From Eledone cirrhosa (taxonomy: Eukaryota), in assembly GCA_964016885.1 (NCBI GenBank), contig CAXHJY010001379.1:1-64000 (forward strand): a stretch of 64,000 bases of DNA, written 5' to 3'. This document shows, piece by piece, positions 11,019-13,471 of this stretch (the first letter of the stretch is position 1; every line of letters begins with the position of its first letter). Both the position numbers and the translations under genes were made by a program. A model generated the notes under the pieces. That model was not told the origin of the DNA and searched no databases. It worked only from the letters and a program-made list of their open reading frames with translations.

Positions 11019-11141
11019 TGTTTAAATTCTCTCATGATGTTCCGATGAATTTTGTCACAGAAATCTTCTACACTGCTTTTGCCTTGTTTCAGTACAACAG
11101 GGGAACGATAATCAGGGAGCTGGCCTTTCGGTTTGGTATAG
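11019..11141 (-). CDS. DRG1: DRG1 exon 8 ([17 protein letters not shown]...[16 protein letters not shown])
   Basis: Acceptor ccacag|C, donor CA|GTAAGT; start of the TGS domain. Confidence 0.95.
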
Positions 11142-11164
11142 CTGTGGAGTCAATAAAGAGATAG

Positions 11165-11166
<2 letters not shown>

Positions 11167-11195
<29 letters not shown>

Positions 11196-11672
11196 ACGTT
11201 TAACGTCCGTGTTCCACGCTTGCATGGGTTTGGACGGGGGTAGTCCCACTTGAGGCAAGAGTGATTGTCTTGCTCGCATAGGACTGTCTGGCAGGTTTTC
11301 CACAGTTGGATGCCCTTCCTAACACCAACCACATTTACAGTGTGGGTCTGGGAGGTTTTTACCGTGTTGCCTACACGGCCACATTACAGCGTGGACTGTG
11401 TGTTTTTTTGTCGTGACACCTACACGATCTCATTTGTTTCGGCCTCGATGGCGCGGCACCAACATAACTTTACATAGAACGGGGTGGTGTGGATCGGGTG
11501 GGGGTGGTGGTGGTGGGACGGGGTGTATTTTGTTAGAGATGCCTACTGGCTGGAGTAGGTTTTACTATATATTTAGGTAAGGCGGGTCTTCTCTGTTACT
11601 GAGTACCGCCAAAGGTCTCGGTCCAGTGACATTGTCTTGGAGAGGTGTAAGTGTGTGATGTCGGAGTTTATC
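11167..11672 (-). mobile_element. Retroposed element with the RTE-type 3' tail and (GAT)n end, inserted between the array and the true exon 8 acceptor
   Basis: The plus strand shows (CAT)n, then gtttaacgtccgt..ccacgcttgcatgggtt and ggatgcccttcctaacaccaacc, the tail shared by many copies in the window. Removing it rejoins a normal array unit. Confidence 0.75.
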
Positions 11673-13440
11673 AGATGAATATAGAAAAGAGGTAGGTAGG
11701 GAGTTGGTCCTTCTGGTTTGGTGTAGCTGTAGGGTTCATGAAAGCAGACACATGACTATGGAAGAGAGAGAGAGAGAGGGAGGGAGAGAGAGAGAGAGAG
11801 AGGGAGGTGGTTCTTTTTGGTTTTGTGTAGCTGTAGGGTTCATGAAAGCAGACACATGACTATGGAAGAGAGAGAGAGAGATAGGGAGGTGGTCCTTTTG
11901 GTTTAGTATAGCTGTAGGGTTCATGAAAGCAGACACGTGACTATGGAAGAGAGAGAGAGAGATAGGGAGGTGGTCCTTTTGGTTTGGTGTAGCTGTAGGG
12001 TTCATGAAAGCAGACACATGACTATGGAAGAGAGAGATATAGGGAGAGAGAGAGATAGGGAGGTGGTCCTTTTGGTTTGGTATAGCTGTAGGGCTGATGA
12101 AGAGATAGATGAATATAGAAGAGAGAGAGAAGTAGGTAAGGAGTTGGTCCTTATAAATTGATATAGCTCTAGGGCTGATAAAGACAGACCCATGAATATA
12201 GGAGAGAGAAGTAGTAGGGAGTTGGTCATCTTGGTTTGGTACAGTTGTAGGGTTCATAAAGACAGACCCATGAATATAGGAGAGAGGTAGAAAGCGAGTT
12301 GGTCTTTTGGGCTTGGTATAACTGTAGGGCTGAAGAAGAGATAGATGAATACAGGAGAGAGAGAGAAGTAGTAAGGAGTTAATCCTTTTGGTTTGGTATA
12401 GCTGTAGGGTTCATAAAGACAGACAGATGAATATGGGAGAGAGAGAAGTAGTAGGGAGTTAGTCCTTTTGGTTTGGTATAGCTGTAGGGTTCATAAAAAC
12501 AGACAGATGAATATGGGAGAGAGAGAGAAGTAGTAGGGAGTTAGTCCTTTTAGTTTGGTATAGCTGTAGGGTTCATAAAGACAGACAGATGAATATGGGA
12601 GAGAGAGAGAGAAGTAGTAGGGAGTTAGTCCTTTTGGTTTGGTATAGCTGTAGGGTTCATAAAGACAGACAGATGAATATGGGAGAGAGAGAGAGAAGTA
12701 GTAGGGAGTTAGTCCTTTTGGTTTGGTATAGCTGTAGGGTTCATAAAGACAGACAGATGAATATGGGAGAGAGAGAGAAGTAGTAGGGAGTTAGTCCTTT
12801 TAGTTTGGTATAGCTGTAGGGTTCATAAAGACAGACAGATGAATATGGGAGAGAGAGAGAGAGAGAGAAGTAGTATGGAGTTAGTCCTTTTGGTTTGGTA
12901 TAGCTGTAGGGTTCATAAAGACAGACAGATGAATATGGGAGAGAGAGAGAGAAGTAGTAGGGAGTTAGTCCTTTTGGTTTGGTATAGCTGTATGGTTCAT
13001 AAAGACAGACAGATGAATATGGGAGAGAGAGAGAAGTAGTAGGGAGTTAGTCCTTTTAGTTTGGTATAGCTGTAGGGTTCATAAAGACAGACAGATGAAT
13101 ATAGGAGAGAGAGAGAAGTAGTAGGGAGTTAGTCCTTTTAGTTTGGTATAGCTGTAGGGCTGATAGAGATAGATGAATATAGGAGTGAGAGAGGTTGGGA
13201 GTTAGTCCTTCTGGTTTAGTACAGCTGTAGGGCTGATAAAGAGATAGATGAATATACGAGGGAAAGAGAGAGAGAAAGGTAGGTAGGTGGTGATTTGGTC
13301 CTTTTGGTTTGGTATAACAGTAGGGCTGATAAAGACAGACAGATGAATATGAGAGATGAAGAGGTAGGTAGGGAGGTAGGGAGGTGGTCCTTTTGGTTTG
13401 GTATAGCTGTAGGGCTAATAGAGATAGATGAAGGTAGATG
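11673..13440. repeat. Tandem array of 21 units (mostly 80-84 bp, range 73-104) derived from the DRG1 intron 7/exon 8 acceptor junction
   Basis: Unit core on the minus strand is CCCTACAG|CTATACCAAACCAAAAGGAC, versus the true junction CTCCACAG|CTATACCAAACCGAAAGGCC. Units differ mainly in (GA)n length. Confidence 0.93.
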
Positions 13441-13471
13441 TAGATAGAGAGAGAGGTAGGTAATAACTTAC

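Follow-up and report, generated by a model that had tools for sequence, protein, structure and literature searches.

Intron 7 of the DRG1 gene of the octopod Eledone cirrhosa contains a tandem array of 21 copies of the gene's own exon 8 acceptor junction. In our assessment, this array is probably a mirage minisatellite that the spliced DRG1 transcript skips, likely because the last copy alone has a donor at exon distance, and it is likely to be neutral. In one sequencing run, exon 7 is joined to the true, 22nd acceptor, and regular splicing is undisturbed at the contig level.

The window analyzed here is the whole stretch of 64,000 nucleotides from positions 1-64,000 of contig CAXHJY010001379.1 of the E. 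cirrhosa assembly GCA_964016885.1, with DRG1 on the minus strand (Table 1). Judged by its translation, the gene is a full-length, intact-frame DRG1, a GTPase of the OBG family. The predicted protein aligns without gaps to an Argonauta hians protein (P0001; 97.5% identity, the best of 572 matches) and to C. elegans DRG1 (P0073; 80.8% identity), and the best PDB match of the exon 8 translation is human DRG1 (2eki). Genome searches with exon 6 and exon 8 returned one strong match apiece in the 3.0-Gb assembly, and no second intact DRG1 copy that might serve as a backup was found in these searches; a weak match, C8 (47%), is likely a DRG2 candidate. The sole DRG1 copy sits on a small unplaced contig (C1406), and the window begins at the first base of this contig.

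Two further introns of the gene also contain repeats. Most of intron 2 is filled by a 48-nt tandem array (21053-21413, 7.7 copies) that begins about 10 nt past the donor; judged by eye, its unit is a copy of intron rather than exon sequence. In intron 8, a degenerate (ACC/ACT)n tract of 620 nt (10357-10983) takes up most of the length, so that exon 8 has repeats on both flanks. Further minisatellites with periods of 48-125 nt lie elsewhere in the window (1690-2101, 37250-37608, 38078-38355, 59594-59846, and 62223-62424). ApeKI alone among the 12 common restriction enzymes checked cuts within 10500-14400.

Table 1. Features of the DRG1 locus, in positions of the window
Feature	Position	Strand	Description
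DRG1 gene	10116..26387	-	nine coding exons, 365 aa, no internal stops
DRG1 exons 1-9	26349-26387, 21424-21589, 20759-20889, 16725-16794, 15098-15267, 14061-14246, 13472-13584, 11019-11141, 10116-10215	-	
DRG1 exon 7	13472..13584	-	donor at 13471
DRG1 intron 7	11142..13471	-	2330 nt filled, 1820 nt empty
Mirage array (probable)	11677..13461	-	21 units, 73-104 nt spacing
Homogeneous central block, units 4/5-13	12322..13151	-	CTAAC branch-point-like word ~60 nt before each AG
Second homogenized block, units 18-21	11677..11992	-	main acceptors 2.2; CATAG 29 nt upstream, 7.5-8.1
5'-truncated LINE end	11167..11676	-	510 nt, DRG1 sense, in the true acceptor's pyrimidine tract
Two donor-like GT sites in LINE	11329..11362	-	scores 5.2 and 6.2
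True exon 8 acceptor	11142..11166	-	score 7.7; terminal unit, among the most diverged
DRG1 exon 8	11019..11141	-	123 nt, start of TGS-domain region

Each unit of the array consists of the 3' ~55 nt of intron 7 and ~29 nt of exon 8, and begins ~10 nt past the exon 7 donor, which means that the donor is not included. An earlier note, made from the sequence alone, had placed 21 pseudo-exon starts at 11726, 11830, 11911, 11992, 12085, 12166, 12244, 12321, 12401, 12481, 12563, 12647, 12731, 12813, 12903, 12987, 13069, 13151, 13224, 13317, and 13406, and each was found exactly there. Its tally of 18 units with CAG, one with GAG (12166) and two that have lost the AG (CTG at 13317, CAA at 12244) was reproduced, with AG kept in 19 of the 21 units, as was the distance of 65 nt between the exon 7 donor and the first decoy. 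A fuzzy search for the unit core returned 22 matches, namely, the 21 decoys and the true exon at 11141, and TRF reported a period of 82, 18.2 copies, 85% matches, and a score of 1773. The origin of the unit from the gene's own acceptor, also proposed in that note, is upheld by alignment of the 55-nt true junction with a central unit, which scores 25.5, far above the genome null (maximum 13.5 in 524 other 1.8-kb genome stretches). The possibility that a dispersed satellite landed in intron 7 was considered and rejected: all nine matches obtained in a genome search with two units, which skips common words, lie inside intron 7, and the unit matched nowhere else in the genome. The copy number of 21 is that of the assembly, and the contigs from sequencing runs matched the two ends of the array only.

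The array has a homogeneous center and diverged edges. Units 5-13 show 0-2 differences per 31 core nt, with a C/T site that recurs every three units; divergence is greatest in the edge units and at the true junction, and the true unit shows 6-13 differences from every decoy. Three exonic substitutions distinguish the central units from exon 8, each of them in the third position of a codon; a one-base indel adjoins them. In a run from a relative (X6), the exon 8 orthologue differs at 15 of 135 letters, and the eight differences listed are all at third positions. In a by-eye comparison, the acceptor of this relative (about 30-33 of 161 upstream letters seen) has TTCAT, TGTCTGT, and TGAAC-N4-CAG in common with the central units, and of the four acceptor positions that distinguish the true site from the central units, the relative agrees with the units at three. 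These comparisons suggest that much of the ancestral acceptor is preserved in the units and that the working copy has changed since, in numbers too small to speak of selection. Among the other runs from relatives, X5 yielded matches to intron 6 repeats only, and X7, X8, and X17 yielded no match.

A plausible history begins with slippage or unequal crossing-over that would have copied nearly the whole of a then-short intron, from about +11 through exon base 29; duplications including the donor would have produced extra 29-nt exons. Later unequal exchange may have amplified and homogenized the inner units, with the coding terminal unit and the edges diverging. A very young LINE has since landed between unit 21 and the true AG.

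The choice of acceptor can be read from run X4, which is taken as RNA from its spliced joint and whose allele of origin was not assigned. One 1540-nt spliced contig (depth 65.5) joins exon 6 to exon 7, skipping intron 6, and its loose end at 13472 corresponds to 11112-11141, where the true exon 8 begins, and shows the letters diagnostic of it. Among the 15 of 31 joints listed, no decoy branch that survived assembly was found in X4, and the depth of exon 7 is that of the single contig; this evidence pertains to the main form only, given that contigs drop rare variants and forms removed by nonsense-mediated decay (NMD) are invisible. At position 14202, in exon 6, a letter of X4 differs from the assembly (depth 65.5/65.5), reflecting either an allele or another individual. 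The prediction in the earlier note that decoy use usually leads to a premature stop agrees with translation of the decoy paths: on the filled allele, all 21 stop before exon 8, and on the computed empty allele, 20 stop before exon 8 and one inside it. Because they stop early, the decoy products are likely NMD targets and hidden from steady-state RNA.

To score splice sites, we used matrices trained on 203 acceptors and 246 donors of the same genome, with junctions called heuristically. The true acceptor, at 7.7, is near the 5th percentile of 216 sampled acceptors (genome median 12.1). Decoy acceptors score 4.7 in the central units, 2.2 in units 18-21, 8.9 in unit 3, and 8.7 in unit 14. When the inner TCAG/TTAG and CATAG sites are included, 16 AG sites in the array score at least 5 and nine exceed the 7.7 of the true site; the earlier count of 21 decoys thus holds for unit starts and falls short of the total of acceptor-like AGs. 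With nine array AGs outscoring the true site, local strength cannot explain the choice. The central units additionally have the CTAAC word and a 61-71 nt AG-free zone, and a near-perfect branch-point word is present in ten central units.

Donor sites show a different picture. The previously noted lack of a strong donor in the units was confirmed on the genome-trained donor matrix, where no GT of the array scores 5 or more. This lack is explained by unit composition, with just 3% of unit shuffles holding a donor of at least 5, and selection against array donors was accordingly rejected. Nor was selection on AG seen, as 19 of 21 are kept vs 18.8 expected from per-site divergence, in units that are not independent. 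An acceptor with its own donor in the array, the mark of a regulated poison exon, was likewise not found, donors of at least 5 being located solely in the young LINE. Recursive (ratchet) splice sites were rejected as well: there is no AG followed by GT, all 21 units continuing with CT or TT after the AG position. Under exon definition, the true acceptor would pair with the exon 8 donor 123 nt downstream, and the array would offer no such partner. In any decoy product that leaks through, a premature stop would precede the last junction and lead to removal by NMD, in which case selection against the array would be weak.

The array is separated from the true acceptor by an insert that includes the last codons of an open reading frame, a 3' untranslated region, and a (GAT)n tail. 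Among 40 scored matches in a genome search, six other copies are 99-100% identical, and longer copies have, further upstream, an open frame that includes a reverse-transcriptase-like stretch. Given these identical copies and the frame upstream, the insert is, by sequence, the 5'-truncated end of a very young LINE (non-LTR retrotransposon); its short frame did not align pairwise with a second LINE frame of the window. Four letters are repeated at the flanks and could represent a target duplication or microhomology, since the element supplies them too. The earlier note had recognized a retro-insertion at 11167-11672; the insertion stands, with a net size of 510 nt instead of 506. A young LINE family at loci L154-L160 includes several copies that are 99-100% identical over 477 nt, with (GAT)n tails and long open frames; several of these copies adjoin (TA)n tracts, and the family is likely still active.

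Removal of the insert makes the real acceptor the terminal unit of the array, as had been claimed, and a contig with the empty site in DNA run X1 agrees. In this run, two contigs end on the same 30-32 acceptor bases, both meeting a third; one, the filled contig (depth 5), continues into the tail of the element, and the other, the empty one (depth 4.5), into that of unit 21, its loose end being equal to 11677-11706. The empty site is represented by a single contig with 30 letters on one side, one below the 31-letter bridging rule, and X1 may be the source sample of the assembly. Most simply, the LINE is likely heterozygous, present on one of two chromosome copies. On the empty allele, decoy 21 is just 75 nt upstream of the true acceptor and would make a 198-nt exon, which is of normal size; distance alone does not exclude this decoy, and its low score of 2.2 must help. 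On the filled allele, the nearest decoy is shifted from 75 to 585 nt. There, and only there, the LINE donors together with the decoy at 11726 would bound a stop-containing pseudo-exon of 364-397 nt.

The earlier note implied that such an array is rare, which was not borne out: mirages are a named class (partial source, PMC3087553), and further cases occur in the same genome. Our sample comprised 280 of the 433 exon matches listed for the kinase, myosin, kinesin, and Ras families and was not random. After scoring and de-duplication, 216 acceptors and 226 donors were kept, and 700 nt of adjacent intron were searched for junction-spanning copies. At least one local copy was present at 4 of the 216 acceptors and 6 of the 226 donors, compared with 20/180 and 21/203 of the respective intronic controls (Fisher p 0.0002 and 0.0004); among the four acceptor hits, two belong to paralogues of a single kinesin gene, L255 is weak, and the donor hit L233 is of low complexity. 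Three or more copies were found at one acceptor and one donor, that is, multi-copy arrays are present at 2 of 442 junctions (95% interval 0.05-1.6%), and the DRG1 array is the longest seen in the survey. Because real junctions carry such copies about one-fifth as often as controls do, junction arrays are probably often disfavored by selection, and the survival of one with 21 units does not prove that it is free of cost. An apparent asymmetry between acceptors and donors in the first 160 matches (0/126 genuine acceptors, L093 having been miscalled, vs 5/135 donors; Fisher p 0.06) vanished at 280 matches, with p = 1.0 once one low-complexity donor hit is left out.

The acceptor-side case is a kinesin mirage (L180:1746-2261; also L178, L183, and L184) with 120-nt units and 4, 1, 4, and 2 extra copies at four paralogous loci. 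A branch-like word, CTAAC/CTGAC, is present in its decoys, which score 8.4-10.2 compared with 8.1-9.4 for the real site; the same kinesin intron has a second array, of 91-96 nt, that also repeats CAG-AGCTGT. On the donor side, a MAPK (ERK-like) gene (L118:1950-2360) has a decayed array that starts ~250 nt into the intron and repeats the exon end plus GTATGT at least five times. In a Rab-like gene (L273), the acceptor and the beginning of the exon recur as a diverged copy 112 nt upstream of the matched exon; a strong donor-like site (9.0) follows 47 nt later, and the copy may be a young cassette exon. Single or double local copies of an exon end or donor junction were observed at L050, L052, L095, L097, L140, and L277, in myosin, PKG-like, Chk1-like, and Ras-family genes.

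Could the array, or most of its copies, be an artefact of assembly? The small unplaced contig, the copy number taken from the assembly, and the near identity of the central units would fit such an explanation. However, the units differ by many substitutions and microsatellite lengths, contigs of X1 (perhaps the source sample, hence no independent individual) are identical to the assembly over 13387-13694 and, on the exon 8 side, extend as far as unit 21, and three runs of sample S1 contain 0.59-0.68 of the words of 11000-14300, which makes an artefact exceedingly improbable. Of the two options left in the earlier note, neutral debris tolerated under exon definition is the one that persists, with X4 showing the true junction; a sink for U2AF or poison splicing does not. 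A selected device of this kind, that is, a copy-number-tuned U2AF/SF1 sink or a regulated DRG1 poison-splicing switch, might be read from the intact AGs of 19 units and from the central CTAAC word with its AG-free zone. Against it, AG retention is the neutral expectation, the most recently amplified units score below the typical acceptor (4.7 vs the median 12.1), a poison exon could be closed only by a donor in the young, segregating LINE, the same structure is found in unrelated genes, and there is no demonstrable conservation in another species. There is no sign of a regulatory role, and we regard such a device as very unlikely.

Two further explanations, which we consider unlikely but to a lesser degree, attach a cost or a conflict to the array. 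In one, the array is a leaky, mildly harmful load: decoys would be noticeably used, NMD would destroy their products, and DRG1 output would differ between haplotypes according to the length of the array or the LINE allele, with no adaptation involved. The nine array AGs that score above the true acceptor, the early stops on all decoy paths, by which such products would escape steady-state RNA, the depletion of junction copies relative to intronic controls, and the LINE that moves the nearest decoy and brings two donor-like sites are all compatible with leakage, as is the use of some pseudo-sites in human donor-side arrays in IFI6 (6-16) and CBS, described in the accessible part of PMC1557585. 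Yet X4 lacks a decoy branch, AG loss is not in excess, and the amphioxus mirages are reported, in the portions available of PMC3087553 and PMC3902484, not to disturb splicing. In the other, to which we likewise give little credence, a live conflict pits the splice site against the copies made from it. About six changes would have taken the functional acceptor and the start of the exon away from the array, those in the exon being without exception synonymous and in the direction of G/C. The segregating LINE would make splicing differ between alleles, either by shielding exon 8 (nearest decoy moved from 75 to 585 nt) or by creating a poison exon from the donors that it carries. The skipped and probably neutral mirage remains the preferred reading.

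Several aspects of the DRG1 mirage are of broader interest. New here is a young LINE at the true acceptor of a mirage, with filled and empty contigs in one DNA run. Filled and empty alleles in one animal would amount to a natural, construct-free test of the effects of decoy distance and of a new donor on splice choice. That a single-copy, conserved housekeeping gene passes 19 AG-bearing copies argues against simple choice of the first AG, and for exon definition, in a cephalopod. Our small survey suggests that junction-derived repeats are regular in this genome (~2% of junctions with a copy) and depleted compared to intron interiors. If the sample is typical, arrays at ~0.5% of junctions would provide hundreds of natural splice-choice experiments per octopod genome.

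A literature search for cephalopod mirages found none, subscription papers being mostly outside its coverage, and a search for human VNTR genes with effects on splicing gave no match. The insert resembles the active RTE-clade LINEs of Octopus genomes (PMC9115989, as far as its available text goes) in being a young non-LTR element in an octopod genome with a reverse-transcriptase-like frame in longer copies; we claim neither a clade nor identity with RTE-2_OV. Among human genes, the accessible portion of PMC1557585 describes donor-side junction VNTRs in F7 IVS7, IFI6 (6-16), CBS IVS13, LMNB2, and PDGF intron 4, with up to 25 reiterated sites, where the site beside the real exon is mainly used, and 6-16 and CBS also use two pseudo-sites. 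In DRG1, as in these VNTRs, the repeated unit straddles an exon/intron border and a splice site is thereby reiterated, but the DRG1 array is their mirror image, located on the acceptor side with the decoys met first in transcript order. The human CBS 844ins68 insertion, which is skipped according to the part of PMC1334203 at hand, is one extra copy, whereas DRG1 has an array.

The closest counterparts are the mirages of amphioxus, described in the globin genes BflGb6 and BflGb9 as tandem, minisatellite-like copies of intron/exon borders with units of 10-160 bp (Ebner et al., PMC3087553, available part). The BflGb6 mirages are on the acceptor side, with 6 and 3 units, of which many but not all keep the splice signal, and splicing is undisturbed; amphioxus mirages have homogenized centers from which the edges are excluded (same source), and their copy number is reported to vary between haplotypes. 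Further cases are Adh (Adh3), troponin C, and PGBD5 (PMC3902484, in part). The DRG1 unit, like that of BflGb6, combines the 3' end of an intron with the 5' part of an exon, and the array has five features of mirages: a border-spanning tandem unit, minisatellite size, partial AG retention, undisturbed splicing (in one contig-level run), and a concerted center with excluded edges. It differs from BflGb6 in having 21 units vs 6 and 3, an 82-nt unit vs one of 150-160, and an octopod vs a lancelet host, and it is unlike the amphioxus mirages in that its units are separated from the real acceptor by a LINE that is young and apparently segregating. The DRG1 array is thus likely a harmless octopod example of a class known from lancelets.
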